Shown here: positions 3,100 to 56,251 of the stretch, one piece after another
Numbering within the stretch: the stretch's first letter is position 1
How the letters are laid out: each line of letters starts with the position of its first letter
Assembly (NCBI GenBank): GCA_910583685.1
Contig: CAJTXY010000001.1
Coordinates: forward strand, 4,755 to 68,754
Reading direction: 5' to 3'
From: an uncultured Bacilli bacterium
GTDB lineage: Bacteria; Bacillota_I; Bacilli_A; RF39; UBA660
DNA: 64,000 nucleotides
Translations under genes and position numbers: made by a program
The notes under the pieces: generated by a model
Told to the model about the DNA's origin: nothing
Databases searched by the model: none
Seen by the model: the letters and a program-made list of their open reading frames with translations, nothing else

Positions 3100-4035
3100 T
3101 TATCTTAATGCATCAATTAGTTCTTGCTTTTTCATTGTAGAGTATCCCTTAACTTCTTTTTCTTTTGCTATCTTTTTTAAATCTGCTAAAGTCATACTCT
3201 CTAAGTCAGTTGTTTCCTCTTTTACTTCTGCTGGTTCTTCTTTTTTTACTTCTTCTTTTGTTGTTTCTTGAGCTACTACTGCTTTTTCTTCCTTTTTTGC
3301 TTCTTTCTTAGTTGCTTTTTGTTTATCTTCTTCTGTTACATAGTCAATTACTTCATTTCCATTTACTTCGGCAATCGCATTTGTAAGAGAACCGATAATT
3401 AGTTTTACAGCACGAACCGCATCGTCATTTCCTGGAATTACATAATCTACTACATCAGGATCACAGTTTGTATCTACAATACCGAATACTGGAATTCCTA
3501 AAATATGTGCCTCTTTAATGGCGATATCTTCTTTTCTAGGATCTACAATTACTAATGCTTGAGGAAGTTTCTTCATTTCGCGAATTCCTCTTAAGTTACG
3601 ATTTAATTTTTCGTATTCTTTTTTAATTTTAATTACTTCTTTTTTAGGTAGTAAATCAAAAGTTCCGTCAGACTCCATTTTATCGATTTCATCCATTCTT
3701 CTAACACGAGAACGAATTGTTTTAAAGTTTGTTAGTGTTCCTCCTAACCATCTTTCGTTTACAAAATACATATTTGTTCTAACAGCGGCCTCTTCACAAG
3801 CTTCTTGTGCTTGTTTTTTTGTTCCAACAAATAGGAATTTACCACCATCTTCCGCAATTTTTTTCATTGCTTCATATGCTTCTTCTAGTTTTTTTACTGT
3901 TTTTTGTAAATCGATAATATAAATATCATCTCTAGTTGTATAGATGTATTCCTTCATTTTAGGATTCCATCTTCTTTTTTGGTGTCCAAAATGTACACCT
4001 GATTCTAATAAATAATTCATTGATACAATTGTCAT
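3100..4035 (-). CDS. rpsB: 30S ribosomal protein S2 with a roughly 100-aa Lys/Glu-rich C-terminal extension ending in a Rho_N-like module
   Basis: [27 protein letters not shown] is a canonical S2 N-terminus. The start is set at the ATG preceded by AAAGGAG (9-nt spacer). The track ORF begins 23 codons further upstream. The C-terminal tail reads ...[34 protein letters not shown]. Confidence 0.9.
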
Positions 4036-17262: not shown

Positions 17263-17333
17263 AATATCACACTTCTTTATCTTTATATATTCAAATTATA
17301 CCACGCAAAAAAAAGTACTGCAACAAGTACTTT

Positions 17334-49641: not shown

Positions 49642-50532
49642 TTATTTTTCTTCTTCATCTATTACTATTAATTCATAGTTTCTAGTTCCCACATTTTGCT
49701 TTTCGGCACTTTCAATTGTAAGTAGACCATTTCGCGATTCAATTCTTTCTATTAAGTGATCTTTTCCTTTATCTTCTGCGTTGTAGACTAAATCGATACA
49801 AGCCTGGTCTAGTGCAACAGGATCTGTGGATGCTAGAAGTCCAATATCCTTCATACAAGGGTCTTCTGCTACAGCACAACAATCACAATCCACTGACATA
49901 TTTACCATAGCATTAAGGTAGACTATTTTACCTTGATAAAAATCTGTAATTGTTTTGGCTGCATCTGCCATTGATTTTAAAAATAAGTTATGATCTACTT
50001 GAAACATATCTTCATAGCTTGCATTTTCCTTCCCACCTGTATGAATATATCTTTTTCCTGCAGATGAGGCTAGGCCTATCGAAATATTTTTAATTGCTCC
50101 TCCGAAGCCACCCATAGGATGTCCTTTAAAATGTGATAATACTATCATAGCATCATAGTCTTTCATTTTAGCACCAACAAAGTTTTTCTGGATTACTTCT
50201 CCGCTTTTATTTTCTAAAGTCATATCTTCCTCACTGTCTAAGATATCAACTTCAAAATATTTGCTCCATCCGTGTTTTTCTAGCAGTTCTTTGTGCTTTT
50301 CTGTTGTATTTCTTGCACCTTCATAAGCAGTATTACATTCTACTACAACACCTCCTATTGCGTCCATCATTGGCTTTACAAATTCTGGTTTCATATAGTT
50401 TTGATTTCCTTCCTCACCAGAATGCAACTTCACAGCAATGCGTCCAGATAGATTGGTATTTAATTTTCGATACAATTTTATTAATCCCTCACCACTAATT
50501 TCTTTGGTAAAATATACTTTTGCTTTTTCCAT
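49642..50532 (-). CDS. DUF362-family protein
   Basis: KVYFT..., LSHFKGHPMGGFGGAIKNISIGLASSAGK matches the DUF362 core. Confidence 0.55.
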   Translation of the reverse strand: MEKAKVYFTKEISGEGLIKLYRKLNTNLSGRIAVKLHSGEEGNQNYMKPEFVKPMMDAIGGVVVECNTAYEGARNTTEKHKELLEKHGWSKYFEVDILDSEEDMTLENKSGEVIQKNFVGAKMKDYDAMIVLSHFKGHPMGGFGGAIKNISIGLASSAGKRYIHTGGKENASYEDMFQVDHNLFLKSMADAAKTITDFYQGKIVYLNAMVNMSVDCDCCAVAEDPCMKDIGLLASTDPVALDQACIDLVYNAEDKGKDHLIERIESRNGLLTIESAEKQNVGTRNYELIVIDEEEK

Positions 50533-50630
50533 ATATTTATTTCCTCCTATTTCTATTTATTTTACCATACTTATGTCAATTTTAAAATCAAGTAATAAAA
50601 ACACCAAATACTTATTTTCTATTTGATGCT

Positions 50631-52496
50631 TTATCTATAAATTGTAAACGGATTTTCTTTTGTTCCATTGCCACCTGTAATTTTGACATCTGATTTTAAG
50701 TAAAAGGCTGGTTTTATTCCCATTGTTTCTACATAATTTGGTGATATCGGTAAATGGATTAAAGCTCTTTGTTCCACCATTCTTACAGCATCAGCACCAT
50801 TATAAGGGAACTTAGTTATTAGCCAGTAGTTGGAATTTAAATTTGTAAAGTCTCCTCGATAATACTCCTCCTGTTGAGTAGCAAGCGGTTCCCCAAACCT
50901 CAACAATCCAATACTGGCAGTAGTTTGTGGAGCATAGTTTATTTTTTGTCTTTCTTGATATTTTGCTAAAAGATAACTTGCCTCTGGTCCCACAGTGCCA
51001 AGGTACCAAGTGGAATTTGGAAGAATCATTTCTACTTGCTCTTCTGTTAAATAACCATTTGCTGGATTTAGAAAATCGTTATTTAGAAAACTACCAAGGG
51101 TAGAATTTTTCGAATACTCATTTGTAGTACCAAATGCCATAGTTTTATATTGTCCATTTTCTCTTAATGGTTCTTTACTTGTAAGTTTAGCTGTTCCATT
51201 TTCGATATATACAATTTGATATAAGTTATTTTCTCCAGTTCCGAACCTTACATATTCACCACTGTATCTTGTGTTTAAGAGAGTATTTTCTAAATTTTTA
51301 TCATTGTCTCCTTTTAAACGGTACGGATTTTCTTTGCTTCCATCTCCACTTACTACTTCGACACTAGACTTTATATTAATACTGGGACGAATTCCATAGC
51401 CAGTAGTTGGATGAGAGAAATTATAATTCCCTTCATAACTAACATAGCCAAAAAAACTATTGGTAGAATTTGGTGTAATTAGATTCCACTCAACTCCATT
51501 ATTTAGATAACTTTTAGTAGATGATGATAAGTTTTTGTGACTCATTGTGAACTCATATATATTTAAAAGACCTACTGCATTTTGTAACATTACTGTTTTA
51601 GGTGGTTTATCAGCCTGTTCCGTTGGTGTTGCATTCCACATACTCTTTGTCTCTATAAACTTATCAGGTTCTCTCAAAGTTCCCAAGAAGCCGTCAATCG
51701 TTGGATCGTTTAACCACTCTTCTACATAACTACCTCTAAAGTCTCCTTTTGCCTCTCCCTCACTATAGGAGATTGAAGTAACTGGCCATTGAGTTATTAC
51801 TTTTACCGAGTTATTGGCAGGATCTTTTGATACTGCTCTCCAAAGTTTTCCAGAATACCATATATAATTTTTCGGGTCCTCTCCTGTTATAAAAATTTGT
51901 TCTTCATCACTGGTATCGAAAGCTCCTTTATCTCCCAGGCTATTACTCTCCTCAAATATTTTTTGATATAAAGGAAGACTATAGCGTTCAATTACTTTTT
52001 TCCTTTCATCAAATGATAAACTTTTATTATAAATTCCAACATCACTTCCGAAAGTTATTTTTTGAGAAGCCACAGTGTTATTTTCTATTCTAATGGTATA
52101 TGTTTTTACATCATTTTGTTTAATCACATACCCTTGTTTTGTGGGAGGTACATCACGGCTATTATCATATTTTGCTTCTACTCCTTCTATAGGGTCATAC
52201 CATAAATTAAATTTGGCATCTACTGCATTGATATTTTTTAATTGTATGGTGATTATTTTTACTTCTTTACTATTAATTATAATGCTATTGTTAGTATCTA
52301 AATCCTCACTTTCTATTAAAGAATAAAGATTTGCTGTTACGATATTTAGACTTCCTCTACTTTCTGTAGATGTTGTAAAAAGGGCAAAGGAAAAGCCGCC
52401 TATTAATAAAAATAGACTAACCATTCCAATTAGTATAAGGTAACCATCTTCTATACCAAATTTCTTTTTTAACTGATATTTGATTTTCCCTAACAT
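50631..52496 (-). CDS. Large secreted protein with a SipW-cognate-like N-terminal motif and two C-terminal G.G(S/T)KENP(Y/F) repeats
   Basis: IGGFSFALFTTSTESRGSLNIVTANLYSL aligns with the CalY/TasA signal region IGGGTFAYFSDKEVSNNTFAAGTLDLTL. C-terminal VVSGDGSKENPYRLKG / KITGGNGTKENPFTIYR. Confidence 0.5.
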   Translation of the reverse strand: MLGKIKYQLKKKFGIEDGYLILIGMVSLFLLIGGFSFALFTTSTESRGSLNIVTANLYSLIESEDLDTNNSIIINSKEVKIITIQLKNINAVDAKFNLWYDPIEGVEAKYDNSRDVPPTKQGYVIKQNDVKTYTIRIENNTVASQKITFGSDVGIYNKSLSFDERKKVIERYSLPLYQKIFEESNSLGDKGAFDTSDEEQIFITGEDPKNYIWYSGKLWRAVSKDPANNSVKVITQWPVTSISYSEGEAKGDFRGSYVEEWLNDPTIDGFLGTLREPDKFIETKSMWNATPTEQADKPPKTVMLQNAVGLLNIYEFTMSHKNLSSSTKSYLNNGVEWNLITPNSTNSFFGYVSYEGNYNFSHPTTGYGIRPSINIKSSVEVVSGDGSKENPYRLKGDNDKNLENTLLNTRYSGEYVRFGTGENNLYQIVYIENGTAKLTSKEPLRENGQYKTMAFGTTNEYSKNSTLGSFLNNDFLNPANGYLTEEQVEMILPNSTWYLGTVGPEASYLLAKYQERQKINYAPQTTASIGLLRFGEPLATQQEEYYRGDFTNLNSNYWLITKFPYNGADAVRMVEQRALIHLPISPNYVETMGIKPAFYLKSDVKITGGNGTKENPFTIYR

Positions 52497-52578
52497 ACAG
52501 CACCTCTATTATCGTTTTAAGTTTATCACTTATTACCTTCTTTGTAAAGATTGCTATCTTTCTATTCCTTATTCTACC

Positions 52579-52600
52579 AAAAAAAAAAAAAAAAAAAAAA
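52579..52600. repeat. Homopolymeric A22 tract (T22 on the minus strand) in the promoter region of the 50631..52496 gene
   Basis: 22 consecutive A on the plus strand, about 85 nt upstream (minus sense) of the ATG. It is flanked (minus strand) by TTGC..., then the T-tract, then GG TAGAAT. Confidence 0.9.
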
Positions 52601-52685
52601 GCAAGAATTTGCGTTTAAAAACTCAGGTGAGATGCTCTACTTGGTCTCCCATGTAAAGCAATTTCATTATACCTCTTTTTTTCTT

Positions 52686-54329
52686 TTATTTCAAGTGATT
52701 TTCAAAAAATTCTACTCTTTTTTTTAAATTTTCTTTTCCTAAGATAGAAAGAAGTTGATAAAGGTCTGGTGTCTTCGTTCTTCCTGTTAGGCAAAAACGA
52801 ATCATCTCACAAATATTTCCTACATGACCTTTATAGTTTTCTGGATTTTCTTTGTATGCTTTTACTTCACTTGCATAGTGATTTCTACTAGCAAAATCTT
52901 TCACCCTTTGGTACCACTCTTCATAGGAATCATTTTCATTAAATTCTTCACTATATGCTTTCAATAGATCGATATCATAGTTTTGCCCTTCAGAACTTTT
53001 ATATGTTTCGTTACTATCTTTAAAAAAGTATTCATCTATCATATAGGTGCTTTCTTCTTTTAAATCTTTTAGAGTAGCAATATCTTTTCGTGGTCTTTTT
53101 GCATCTCTTTCAATGTTTAAAAATGCGATTAATCTTTCTTCATTTTCCTTCATTATATGAGCAAAATCTTTATCGTATTTTAGATTATACTCAAGTGAGT
53201 CATCATATATTTGTTTTGCAGATAATCTTGAAAAATAGGTGCGACAAATATTGTTTAATTTTTCCATATCGAAGAGGGTTCCACCTACTGGCATTTTTTT
53301 ATAACTAAATGTAAAATCTTCTAAAGTTTTATCCTTGTTTTGTAAATACCACTCTTCAAAGTTTGTATTTGTTAAGGTTGCTAAATATAATCTCACTGCT
53401 TCTGCTGGAATTCCTGCTTCTTGGTAGTAGCTTACGGAAAACTCTGGATCTTTTCTTTTACTTAGTTTTCGTACCTTTCCATCTTCTTTTTTTGTAAGTG
53501 GTGCATGGTGTGCATATTTTGGCGACTTCCAACCTAGTAGTTGAAATAATTGTAAGTGTTTTGGGTAACTAGGCACCCATTCATCACCACGAATTACGTG
53601 TGTTGTTTTCATTAGATGATCGTCTACTACGTGTGCAAAATGATAGGTTGGGATTCCATCTTTTTTTAGAATTACCTCATCTATTATATTTTCAGGGAGA
53701 AGAATATCTCCTTTGATTAAATCGTGAAGGACAATTTGCTTGTTTGCATCTCCTGGAGACTTAATCCGGATAACAAAATGGTCTTTTTTTTCTAAATGCT
53801 TTTTTACCTCTTCTATTGATAAATCTCTATCTACTGCATAATGGCCATAAATACCTGTAATTTCTTTTCGAAGCTCTTGTCCTTCCCTTATTTCTTGCAG
53901 TTCAGATTCTGTCATAAAACAAGGATAAGCTTTTCCCTCTTCTACTAAGGCCTTGGCAAATACTTGATAAATTTCTTTACGTTCACTTTGAACATATGGC
54001 CCATAGTTTCCTTCTTTTCCATATCCTTCATTATAGGGGATAGAAAAGTGTTTTAATGAATTTAGTATTAATTCATTTGCTCCTTCTACTTGACGCTTGC
54101 TATCAGTATCTTCTAATCGCAAATACATTATTCCACCAGTTTGATGTGCCATTACAGAGTCAAGAAAGGCTCCACACAAATTTCCGATGTGCATAAATCC
54201 AGTTGGAGATGGCCCGAATCTGGTTACCATTGCCCCTTCTTTTAGATTTCTTTCTGGAAACATTTTTTCTATATCTTCTCTTGTTTTTTTTATATCTGGA
54301 AATAATAATTCCGCTAATTCGTGATTCAT
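52686..54329 (-). CDS. gltX: Glutamate--tRNA ligase (probably non-discriminating)
   Basis: TRFGPSPTGFMHIGN (HIGH), LEDTDSKRQ, KLSKRK (KMSKS). 547 aa. Confidence 0.8.
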   Translation of the reverse strand: MNHELAELLFPDIKKTREDIEKMFPERNLKEGAMVTRFGPSPTGFMHIGNLCGAFLDSVMAHQTGGIMYLRLEDTDSKRQVEGANELILNSLKHFSIPYNEGYGKEGNYGPYVQSERKEIYQVFAKALVEEGKAYPCFMTESELQEIREGQELRKEITGIYGHYAVDRDLSIEEVKKHLEKKDHFVIRIKSPGDANKQIVLHDLIKGDILLPENIIDEVILKKDGIPTYHFAHVVDDHLMKTTHVIRGDEWVPSYPKHLQLFQLLGWKSPKYAHHAPLTKKEDGKVRKLSKRKDPEFSVSYYQEAGIPAEAVRLYLATLTNTNFEEWYLQNKDKTLEDFTFSYKKMPVGGTLFDMEKLNNICRTYFSRLSAKQIYDDSLEYNLKYDKDFAHIMKENEERLIAFLNIERDAKRPRKDIATLKDLKEESTYMIDEYFFKDSNETYKSSEGQNYDIDLLKAYSEEFNENDSYEEWYQRVKDFASRNHYASEVKAYKENPENYKGHVGNICEMIRFCLTGRTKTPDLYQLLSILGKENLKKRVEFFENHLK

Positions 54330-54357
54330 AATTTCACTCCTTATAATAAAAAATATA

Positions 54358-54432
54358 TGGCTGCCCCGGCTAGATTCGAACTAGCGCATAAAGCGGTCAG
54401 AGCGCTCTGCCTTACCACTTGGCTACGGGGCA
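54358..54432 (-). tRNA. tRNA-Gln (anticodon CUG)
   Basis: Cloverleaf read by hand: acceptor TGCCCCG/CGGGGCA, anticodon stem GAGCG/CGCTT with loop CTCTGAC, T-arm GCTAG-TTCGAAT-CTAGC, encoded CCA. Confidence 0.7.
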
Positions 54433-54499
54433 ATTCATACATTAGTATTTTATAATAAATTCTTTAAAATAGCAAGAAAAAAGCCTAATTTTTATTATT

Positions 54500-55111
54500 T
54501 TAGGCCTTTTTTCTTTTTACTGCTATTTTTATTACTTCATCATTACATTCTTTGCTTTTTAAATAATCTGTAATTCCTAGTTGTCTTAAATTATAGTACT
54601 GAATTGCTCCTCGTAAATTATTTTCATAATTTAAGTAATTCTCTATATTCTTTTGTTTTATGAGACTTTGTTCTAGTTCATATAGTGGAAGGTTGGTAAC
54701 AAATTGAATTGCCTCCTGATTTTCTTCAAACTCCTCATTAATTTTCATTAGAGAAGTTTTAAATACACTCATATTTCTTTCTGATAAACGAAAATCCATT
54801 TTTAACATATTTTTTAACGAGATCTGTCCATCATTGGCTTCTCTTTCTTCCACTACTTCCTCTATATATTCTTTTAATTTTTCATCTCCAATTATTGGCC
54901 AAATACCATTGCACTGTCTTCTTCGTTCTAGAGCATTTCTTAAAATTGCCATATGCATTTTACTAAAATTATAACTAATGACATATGAAGAAAGAGTACC
55001 TTCTATTTGTGCTAATTGCTCAGAAGAGATTTGTGATGGATCTTCTGTAATTTCTAATGCTTGTGCAATATATTTAACAAATGGATTAGTAAAATCAACT
55101 TTTGGCTTCAT
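54500..55111 (-). CDS. Hypothetical cytoplasmic protein (203 aa)
   Basis: ORF with reasonable codon usage. No recognised motif. Confidence 0.4.
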   Translation of the reverse strand: MKPKVDFTNPFVKYIAQALEITEDPSQISSEQLAQIEGTLSSYVISYNFSKMHMAILRNALERRRQCNGIWPIIGDEKLKEYIEEVVEEREANDGQISLKNMLKMDFRLSERNMSVFKTSLMKINEEFEENQEAIQFVTNLPLYELEQSLIKQKNIENYLNYENNLRGAIQYYNLRQLGITDYLKSKECNDEVIKIAVKRKKA

Positions 55112-55328
55112 ATAAATCCCCCTTTAAATTCTTGCATATTATACTATAAATTTGTAATTTTGTCAATATTTCTATGTATTTTCTTCTTTTCTCCTTATAT
55201 AATATGATTAAATATAAAATAAAGATACTGCAATTTGATTTACTGTTTATTATTAAGTTTTATGTAAATTCCTGTCTTATTCATTATAATATAAAAACGA
55301 CTTATCAATGAGTCGTTTGATATCAATA

Positions 55329-55405
55329 TGGTAGCGACGGAGGGAATCGAACCCCCGACCTTTCGGGTATGAACCGAACGCTCTAGCCAGCTGAGCTACA
55401 TCGCC
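55329..55405 (-). tRNA. tRNA-Met (anticodon CAU), elongator-like
   Basis: GGCGATGTAGCTCAGCTGGCTAGAGCGTTCGGTTCATACCCGAAAGGTCGGGGGTTCGATTCCCTCCGTCGCTACCA is nearly identical to the Bacillus elongator tRNA-Met. Confidence 0.8.
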
Positions 55406-55474
55406 ATTTCGTCTTAGCAAACTAATTATAACAAAAGAAGTTCTTTTTGACAATGTTTTTTGTAAAATTTCTTC

Positions 55475-56251
55475 TCATCTAATAAATATCAGGAAAAATT
55501 TTGCCATAATGACTTGTAAAAGTGGTGTGCGTATTTTAAACTTTGGATTTTCCCTTTCTATCTCCCTTACTACCTTTTTAACTATAGACGATAAAGATTT
55601 TTTCTCTATTAATGAGAACAGATTTCTTTGTAGACGTGTTATATTATCTTCATCTTTCATACCCCATAATCTTTTTCCTTTTTTGTCAATCATCACTTGG
55701 TTAAATCCGGTTTGATAGGCCCCTGGTTCAATTAGAGAAATGGTGATATTAGGGTTTAATACCTTTAATTCCCTTTGAATGGTAAATACAAGCATAGAGA
55801 TCGCTGCTTTTGAGGATGTATAGCATCCCAAATATGGAAATGGTAAAATGCTTGCTAGACTAGACGTTACAAATATCTTGCCTTTTTTATTTTTTTCTTG
55901 CATATGATGATAAATTTCTTGAAGCAGGCGGAAATTCCCAAAGATATTAACATCATAAACCCTTTTTAGCGAAACCATATCTATTTCTAAAAGACTTCCG
56001 CTTTCTCCTACTCCTGCGTGACTTAAGAAACAATCAAAATCTATTTTTGCTACTTTCAAAATATCTTTTTCCTCTGTTACATCAAGTTTTAGGCATATTG
56101 CTTTCAGTCCTTCTTTTTCCAATTTTTGTTTTAAGCTTTCACATTGACCCTTTGTATGTGTGCCTAAATAGAGACTATGTCCTCTTCTAATTAATTCTCT
56201 TGCCACATTGTAGGCAATTCCACTTGTTGCTCCTGTTATCAGTATTTTCAT
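55475..56251 (-). CDS. Short-chain dehydrogenase/reductase (SDR) family oxidoreductase
   Basis: MKILITGATSGIAYNVAREL (TGxxxGIG), and the catalytic YTSSK. Start set at the ATG after GGTGA, which also avoids overlapping the HK gene. Confidence 0.75.
   Translation of the reverse strand: MKILITGATSGIAYNVARELIRRGHSLYLGTHTKGQCESLKQKLEKEGLKAICLKLDVTEEKDILKVAKIDFDCFLSHAGVGESGSLLEIDMVSLKRVYDVNIFGNFRLLQEIYHHMQEKNKKGKIFVTSSLASILPFPYLGCYTSSKAAISMLVFTIQRELKVLNPNITISLIEPGAYQTGFNQVMIDKKGKRLWGMKDEDNITRLQRNLFSLIEKKSLSSIVKKVVREIERENPKFKIRTPLLQVIMAKFFLIFIR

Follow-up and report, generated by a model that had tools for sequence, protein, structure and literature searches.

A length-polymorphic T tract between a terminator-like hairpin and a predicted promoter upstream of a DUF6273 gene in an uncultured Bacilli bacterium

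Whether the length of a single homopolymer could set the expression of a surface-protein gene is the question raised by a short intergenic region on the minus strand of the 64,000-nt stretch of DNA analyzed here (the window), in which gltX is followed by a tract of 22 T residues and then by a gene whose product of 621 aa carries DUF6273 regions. A sequence-only reading of this DNA had taken the tract, preceding a gene for a surface protein, as a candidate phase-variation switch located in a promoter spacer. The tract is indeed there, in the arrangement TTGC-T22-GG-TAGAAT followed by 74 nt to the ATG, and we regard it as a credible but unproven candidate expression switch.

The tract and the gltX–DUF6273 junction

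Read on the minus strand, the region has the order AAACGCAAATTCTTGC-T22-GG-TAGAAT-AAGG, with the tract at 52600..52579 (A22 at 52579..52600 on the plus strand), TAGAAT at 52576..52571, and the ATG of the 621-aa ORF at 52496; we annotate the tract as a putative terminator U-tail, promoter spacer, and hypermutable element. A count of all homopolymers found no other in the 64 kb that exceeds 9 nt, the next-longest A/T runs being of 9 nt (three cases) and 8 nt (19 cases), and with independent, identically distributed bases the expected number of runs of at least 22 in the window is 4e-5 for T and 1e-7 for A. Its 22 units are well above the approximately 8 or more at which slipped-strand mispairing is considered. 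The T22 is a genuine and probably mutationally unstable homopolymer within a compact, putative terminator–promoter junction. An origin as a eukaryotic poly-A or retroelement scar was rejected, since in five assemblies the genes on either side of the tract are bacterial and collinear.

Upstream of the tract is gltX, coding for glutamate–tRNA ligase (52686..54329, minus strand; TIGR00464, 312.7 bits against a cut-off of 289.95), whose product is, at 547 aa, a long GluRS. A tRNA-Gln(CUG) gene (54358-54432, minus strand) is situated 28 nt upstream of gltX behind its own promoter, TTGCTA-17-TAAAAT, and for that reason the two are probably co-transcribed. The neighboring genes are all on the minus strand, the downstream one being a DUF362 gene with an extended -10 promoter of its own. 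At 86 nt past the gltX stop codon and directly 5' of the T run there is a terminator-like hairpin (AAACGCAA-ATTC-TTGC(T)TTT, 52597..52616, minus strand), the folding energy of which is -7.7 kcal/mol in two other assemblies of the species that carry TTGCG (L016 and L022) and -7.8 kcal/mol in an assembly of another species (L126), while in the window allele a G>T change (TTGCG>TTGCT) weakens it to -2.7 kcal/mol. Both species preserve this hairpin, each with a different inner stem and loop. The features of an intrinsic terminator, namely a stable hairpin and then U16-22 downstream of the co-directional gltX, are all found, and in L016, L022, and L126 the hairpin with its T run is, as far as sequence can tell, a standard intrinsic terminator, at which the gltX transcript would end; no terminator was called at T22 in the window by a simple scan. 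Junctions of the same composition, in which a hairpin, a T run, and a -10 box follow one another, are common elsewhere (position 17303 of the window and, in related genomes, L109, L094, and L113) and have tails of T7-9, and no other terminator tail in the 64 kb is longer than 9 nt.

The sequence TGgTAGAAT (52571..52579, minus strand) forms the extended -10 element of a predicted promoter, P2, a feature absent from the sequence-only reading; its TG, one base before TAGAAT, is made up of the final T of the tract and the G that follows, and GGTAGAATAAGG is identical in L126. The -35-like hexamer TTGCTT (52599..52604, minus strand), which reads TTGCGT in L016, L022, and L126, coincides with the 3' arm of the hairpin. 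The tract is thereby placed between a conserved -10 with its upstream TG and the -35-like TTGC(G)T, with another candidate promoter, P1, further upstream. In the predicted 5' UTR of the P2 transcript (52497..52570, minus strand), the ribosome-binding site GAGGTG lies at 52506..52501, and the start of this UTR (AAGGA.A..GATAG.AA..TTACAAA) is shared in part with L126; TAGAATAAGG is found also at the diversity-generating retroelement (DGR) locus of three paralogue-bearing contigs (L065, L070, and L097).

With TTGCTT as the -35, the spacer is made of 20 T plus GG, i.e., 22 nt; the return to 17 nt, for which the loss of "a few" T had been thought sufficient, needs the loss of five. Boxes with a -35 at 17 nt are used elsewhere in this organism (positions 55166, 55453, and 54475), as in TTGACA-17-TATAAT at 55166, TTGTCA-17-TATAAT before tRNA-Met, and the aforementioned promoter of tRNA-Gln. 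Extended -10 promoters, on the other hand, can function without a -35, and boxes of the form TGnTAnAAT are a common promoter form 5' of genes in the window; as P2 has such an element, the -35, and hence the length of the spacer, may matter less than had been assumed. P2 is probably the active promoter of the DUF6273 gene, the hairpin arm that resembles a -35 may contribute to it, and changes in tract length may alter its expression.

Tract length in other assemblies

The same locus was found in other samples by exact-protein look-ups, and the lengths reported here are those of the assembly consensus of metagenomes, which is error-prone at long homopolymers. The window has TTGC 5' of the tract, T22, and a spacer of 22 nt. 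In L001 (GCA_949948905.1) the bases 5' of the tract are TTGG, the tract is T20, and TTGGTT is separated from TAGAAT by 20 nt; L016 (ERZ14865206; 99.3% identical) has TTGCG, being otherwise as the window, with T17 (G+T17) and a spacer of 18 nt; and L022 (Logan SRR17684624; 98.7% identical), also with TTGCG, has T22 (G+T22) and a spacer of 22 nt. The contig of another species, L126, starts with GAAAACGCGCATTGCG-T16-GGTAGAATAAGG, in which TTGCGT is exactly 17 nt from TAGAAT; it encodes the closest homologue (P0002, 49% amino acid identity), whose ATG lies approximately 62 nt past GGTAGAATAAGG. The tract is thus of 16-22 nt in every assembly of two species, and its consensus length differs between assemblies (T22, T20, T17, and T22, with T16 in the sister species). 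The sequence-only reading had proposed a look at other isolates as one of its checks, and between these assemblies the consensus length is not invariant. Among the four alleles of the species, the spacer is of 18, 20, 22, and 22 nt, and never of 17.

Over 7.8 kb, L001 departs from the window only by six substitutions and a 2-nt indel, all of them confined to the 26 nt immediately 5' of the tract (window 52599-52624 vs L001:2873-2900). Because both L016 and L022 match the window at the bases substituted in L001, these substitutions look like miscalls made after a homopolymer, and the L001 differences are probably of this nature; less probably, they mark a local hypermutation hotspot. The L022 contig ends 8 nt past the tract (about 52570 of the window) and the L126 contig begins beside it, and no paralogue or repeat that could account for contig breaks was found in the window. 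Contig ends at the T tract and at the poly-G leaders of paralogues, which are described below, are suggestive, being consistent with length heterogeneity or with repeat collapse; the ends of L111, L115, L116, L118, and L122-L125 lie at or within approximately 130 nt of such leaders. As to further strains, a scan of JGI metagenomes with the downstream flank gave no match, and neither did a first genome scan with a single protein as the query. Another homopolymer that differs between samples is an A8/A9 run at approximately 4850 of L002-L011, in ORF-A of an IS3-type transposase (146 vs 128 aa), which is the usual, ordinary frameshift site of these elements.

Possible roles of the tract

The reading that we favor, and whose truth we hold to be evenly balanced, is that the tract is at once a terminator tail and a promoter spacer whose length modulates P2. 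On the RNA, the T run would be the U-tail of an intrinsic terminator (AAACGCAA-AUUC-UUGCG) ending the gltX transcript, and on the DNA it would be the spacer from the 3' arm of the hairpin (TTGCGT) to the TGgTAGAAT of the promoter of the DUF6273 gene. Since the spacer must be of about 17 bp, the terminator tail would be longer, at 15-16 T's, than the 7-9 that are usual; so long a run would slip in replication, so that strains would vary in its length and hence in the distance between -35 and -10 (17, 18, 20, 22, and 22), and the longer spacers would weaken or silence P2, with heritable and reversible expression of the surface protein, either on/off or graded, as the outcome.

The main argument for a function is the conservation of a long uninterrupted tract in two species, because its being kept at 49% amino acid identity argues for selection, and the sister species adds the exact 17-nt spacing. 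The reading as a dual element also draws on the T7-9 of ordinary terminator–promoter junctions, on the -35 boxes at 17 nt that the organism uses, on the fact that the gene family is targeted by other hypervariation devices (DGR and G8-11 leaders), and on the established status of homopolymer-in-promoter switches (vlp and sabA). It is weakened by the lack of a 17-nt allele among the four of the species, by the extended -10, by P1, which could be the real promoter, by the T9, T10, and T19 tails of the DGR junctions, by lengths that are those of a consensus only, and by the apparently miscalled bases of L001. The phase-variation switch of the sequence-only reading is therefore upheld in part: the tract, the placement of the -35-like and -10 elements, and the length polymorphism speak for it, but the extended -10, the function as a terminator U-tail, P1, and the missing 17-nt allele in the same species speak against it.

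A possible though on balance unlikely alternative is that the tract is a neutral by-product, i.e., a U-tail lying beside an extended -10 that is independent of a -35, expanded by slippage and drifting in length without consequence. Termination would already be saturated past approximately 8 U's and the promoter would have no need of a -35, while extended -10 boxes are common in the window and the succession of hairpin, T run, and -10 is routine with T7-9. The DGR loci of paralogues also point in this direction, since between the template repeat (TR) and the first small ORF they have a hairpin (CGTCAA..TTGACG) followed by Tn and TAGAATAAGG, where n is 10 (L097) and 9 (L065) in two genomes and 19 in a third (L070), with flanks approximately 99% identical, which looks like a recent expansion; the spacers at these junctions (11, 12, and 22 nt) are all non-functional, and terminator tails can thus expand without an evident -35 logic. 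In addition, the spacers of the species (18-22 nt) are not centered on 17. Nevertheless, the tract has 16-22 nt in all assemblies of two species that share just 49% identity in the protein, a divergence over which a neutral, uninterrupted homopolymer this long would be expected to shorten or to be broken up. The optimal 17-nt spacing to TTGCGT in the sister species also counts against drift, as does the limit of 9 nt on all other terminator tails of the window.

Improbable, in our judgment, is a third explanation, by which P1 is the real promoter and the hairpin with its U run is a leader attenuator or the terminator of a small RNA of approximately 85 nt, so that tract length and the TTGCG/TTGCT difference would tune read-through and not initiation. 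P1 is a near-consensus sigma-A-type promoter (TTGAAA-17-TATAAT, 52666..52694, minus strand; 11/12 match) that overlaps the gltX stop codon and lies 66 nt upstream of the tract, and it is the best promoter match in a region of 4.3 kb; the coding strand of the window has only six that reach 11/12 or more, P1 included, and of the remaining five two directly precede genes. Between P1 and the terminator hairpin there is a stable hairpin, UGCUUUAC..GUAGAGCA (52633..52660, minus strand; -14.4 kcal/mol), and P1, this hairpin, and the terminator hairpin (52633-52694) could encode the small RNA or a leader. An upstream ORF, MKLLYMGDQVEHLT* (ATG at 52667), was dropped as not conserved, because its ATG is ATA in L016 and L022. 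In favor of P1 count its match and the two hairpins that follow it, the weakening of the terminator hairpin in the window allele (-7.7 to -2.7 kcal/mol), which would raise read-through, and the attenuator that precedes the gene in the leaders of paralogues. However, L126 conserves both GGTAGAATAAGG and the first part of the UTR, which fits a promoter with its transcription start at P2; the enrichment of matches with 11/12 or more over shuffles is only about twofold (9 in the window vs 4.5 +/- 2); and a search of Rfam at E<=1 over 50000..55500 found two tRNAs only, with no family match for the region. Nor should termination become more or less efficient from U16 to U22. The contig of L126 stops short of the P1 position.

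We consider it very improbable that the tract arose in sequencing or assembly and that the differences between assemblies are technical. All the sources are short-read metagenome assemblies, the L001 differences lie all beside the tract, a pattern typical of miscalled bases past a homopolymer, and two contigs (L022 and L126) end at or beside it. Against an artefact, five independent assemblies, obtained from different samples and pipelines and covering two species, show a T run of 16 or more in the same place, flanked by collinear genes; the 5-nt differences (17 vs 22) exceed usual consensus errors, and the occurrence of the long run with the same flanks in three other assemblies of the species and in the sister species argues that it is no artefact.

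If the tract is the dual element that we favor, it is akin to several known arrangements without being the same as any of them. It resembles an ordinary terminator abutting the next promoter in its succession of hairpin, T run, and -10 box (17303, L109, and L094) but differs from these junctions, which have T7-9, in its T16-22 of polymorphic length. In Neisseria porA and opc and Haemophilus hifA/B, a repeat between -35 and -10 sets the length of the spacer, 16-18 bp being on and other lengths low or off; promoter-spacer repeats of the hifA/B kind were reportedly described by van Ham and others in 1993 (cited in PMC11868660). The tract would be like these in setting a spacer length from within, whereas theirs are poly-G, poly-C, or TA repeats, in Proteobacteria, and have no terminator function.

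Closer in base composition is the poly-A tract in the promoter region of the vlp genes of Mycoplasma hyorhinis (Citti and Wise 1995, as summarized in PMC10502178). Shared with vlp are a long A/T homopolymer, its position at a surface-protein promoter, a small-genome, low-GC organism of the Bacilli/Mollicutes type, a promoter geometry that slippage would alter, and a gene that belongs to a multigene family of surface proteins. Unlike vlp, the tract described here doubles as the U-tail of the terminator of the upstream gene, has the 3' arm of a hairpin as its -35 and an extended -10, and occurs as a single copy in conserved context and not in a vlp-like cluster, in a locus known from sequence alone. 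In Helicobacter pylori, the T tract of sabA acts as a "rheostat" adjacent to the -35 element (PMC4081817). The two loci have in common a variable intergenic T tract beside the core promoter elements of the gene for a lectin-like adhesin, a length that is highly variable between isolates, and an output that may be graded and not on/off, but here the tract lies downstream of the -35-like hexamer and inside the spacer, and it does not belong to the sabA type as described there.

Switches based on a homopolymer within a promoter spacer are classical (vlp, porA, opc, hif, and, as a variant, sabA), and what would be new here is the unstudied commensal lineage and the sharing of the tract with a terminator tail. 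Should tract length set expression, the region would act as a contingency locus for a lineage of uncultured gut commensals; reduced-genome Bacilli would be able to vary a lectin-like surface protein without dedicated regulators, and one sequence would serve two purposes, those of terminator tail and promoter spacer.

The DUF6273 family and its poly-G leaders

The protein encoded downstream of the tract (621 aa; 50631..52496, minus strand) has a K-rich N-terminus, one hydrophobic helix, a beta-sandwich, and DUF6273 (C-type-lectin-like) regions, the Pfam DUF6273 match having an E value of 8e-8. DUF6273 is a C-type-lectin-like domain that is a target of diversity-generating retroelements (PMC10743442, PMC11792537). 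The AlphaFold model of the protein is poor (mean pLDDT 47.9) except for the beta-sandwich at residues ~56-170, and Foldseek with this model returned generic Ig-like/MG domains only. The whole protein had no hit in NCBIfam and none among PDB sequences. That it bears an N-terminal signal or anchor agrees with the sequence-only reading, which had also supposed a variable surface antigen, and it belongs to a paralogue-rich family that is hypervariable elsewhere (DGR in L070 and more than 50 poly-G leaders). The label of a SipW-cognate, TasA-class protein is without support: the first 92 residues had no hit in NCBIfam at E<=10, a search in which HMMER filters can hide very weak matches; the window has no signal peptidase of the SipW type (ER/archaeal type), its sole signal peptidase I motif being P-type (GDSMSPT, ~26115, minus strand); and the confidently modeled N-terminal domain is a generic beta-sandwich. 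The gene of the window is without a VR/TR pair, where VR is the variable repeat, and a convincing reverse transcriptase motif is absent from the window; repetition inside the gene is limited to three weak matches of 51-64 nt (69-73% identity), two of which link its two DUF6273-like regions.

In a profile scan of GTDB representative genomes the family had at least 577 members, in uncultured Bacilli and "Tenericutes" MAGs ("Ca. Onthousia", CAG-451, and a circular MAG of 1.52 Mb), with copies that are often many per genome and frequently in tandem. Single-copy members were repeatedly found directly 3' of an aminoacyl-tRNA synthetase gene (L101-L104 and L108; homologues P0103 and P0196), the synthetase being of class Ib in "Ca. 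Onthousia" and encoded by gltX in the window (52497-52685).

Outside the window, a DGR has a DUF6273-family gene as its target at L070:1988-5837, and likewise in L097 and L065. In L070, the VR at the 3' end of the gene (~3657-3743) and the downstream TR (~3912-3998) differ solely at TR adenines, and 3' of the TR come ORFs of 111 aa and 114 aa and then a reverse transcriptase of 316 aa with a YMDD motif. A second kind of element is a G8-11 tract in a conserved leader, present at more than 50 paralogue loci (L023-L125; for example L027:2273-2502, L045:194-422/2243-2472/4293-4522, and L109:150-403). From its 5' end, this leader has a box similar to an extended -10, the ribosome-binding site GAAAGAAGGTA, a short ORF ending in ...LQxVTWGG..., and the G tract, which is followed by a variable hairpin, TACTTTCTTTC, a terminator-like hairpin with a T run, and finally the main gene's own ribosome-binding site and ATG. 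The stem of the leader terminator shows a compensatory exchange of U-A to C-G (24 and 15 sequences, respectively), and 85.9% of its cells are paired, a value reached by 0/500 shuffles. Past the G tract, two of the frames stop within 23 nt, and the third is open and stops inside the terminator hairpin in 49/54 distinct leaders; in 44 of the 54, the spacing between G tract and CU-rich box is divisible by 3 despite the varying length of the insert, and the assembled length of the G tract leads to a short frame in 51 of them.

These features suggest that the poly-G leader is a phase-variable, translation-gated attenuator, in which the number of G's would select the frame and only a ribosome in the long frame would enter the terminator and prevent termination. 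The G tract is presumably hypermutable; no pair of strains with a different number of G's at the same locus was found, and Rfam had no match on five homologue loci. A search of the window by nhmmer with a profile of 45 leaders found no copy of the leader, its best hit (E 0.046) being a generic terminator elsewhere. As a candidate for a new type of phase-variable attenuator, the poly-G leader may be a more novel lead than the T tract itself.

With the DGR, the poly-G leaders, and the T tract, several independent diversification mechanisms would act on one family, which marks the DUF6273 proteins as a likely key interface with the host, phage, or other microbes. A still broader proposal, which we consider doubtful, is that the T tract is one of a lineage-wide set of selected hypermutation devices controlling DUF6273 surface proteins in small-genome gut Bacilli, dual-purpose and conserved across species here and taking the form of a DGR or a poly-G switch in paralogues; under it, the T run would both shield the gene from read-through out of gltX and gate the gene's own promoter. 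The leader ORFs of L025, L050, L061, L076, L078, L112, and L113 are lengthened by one to three tandem units of approximately 24 nt located 5' of the poly-G (GGTAAAnTAATTCGTCAATyT, peptide GKxIRQ..), and the number of these units could vary too.
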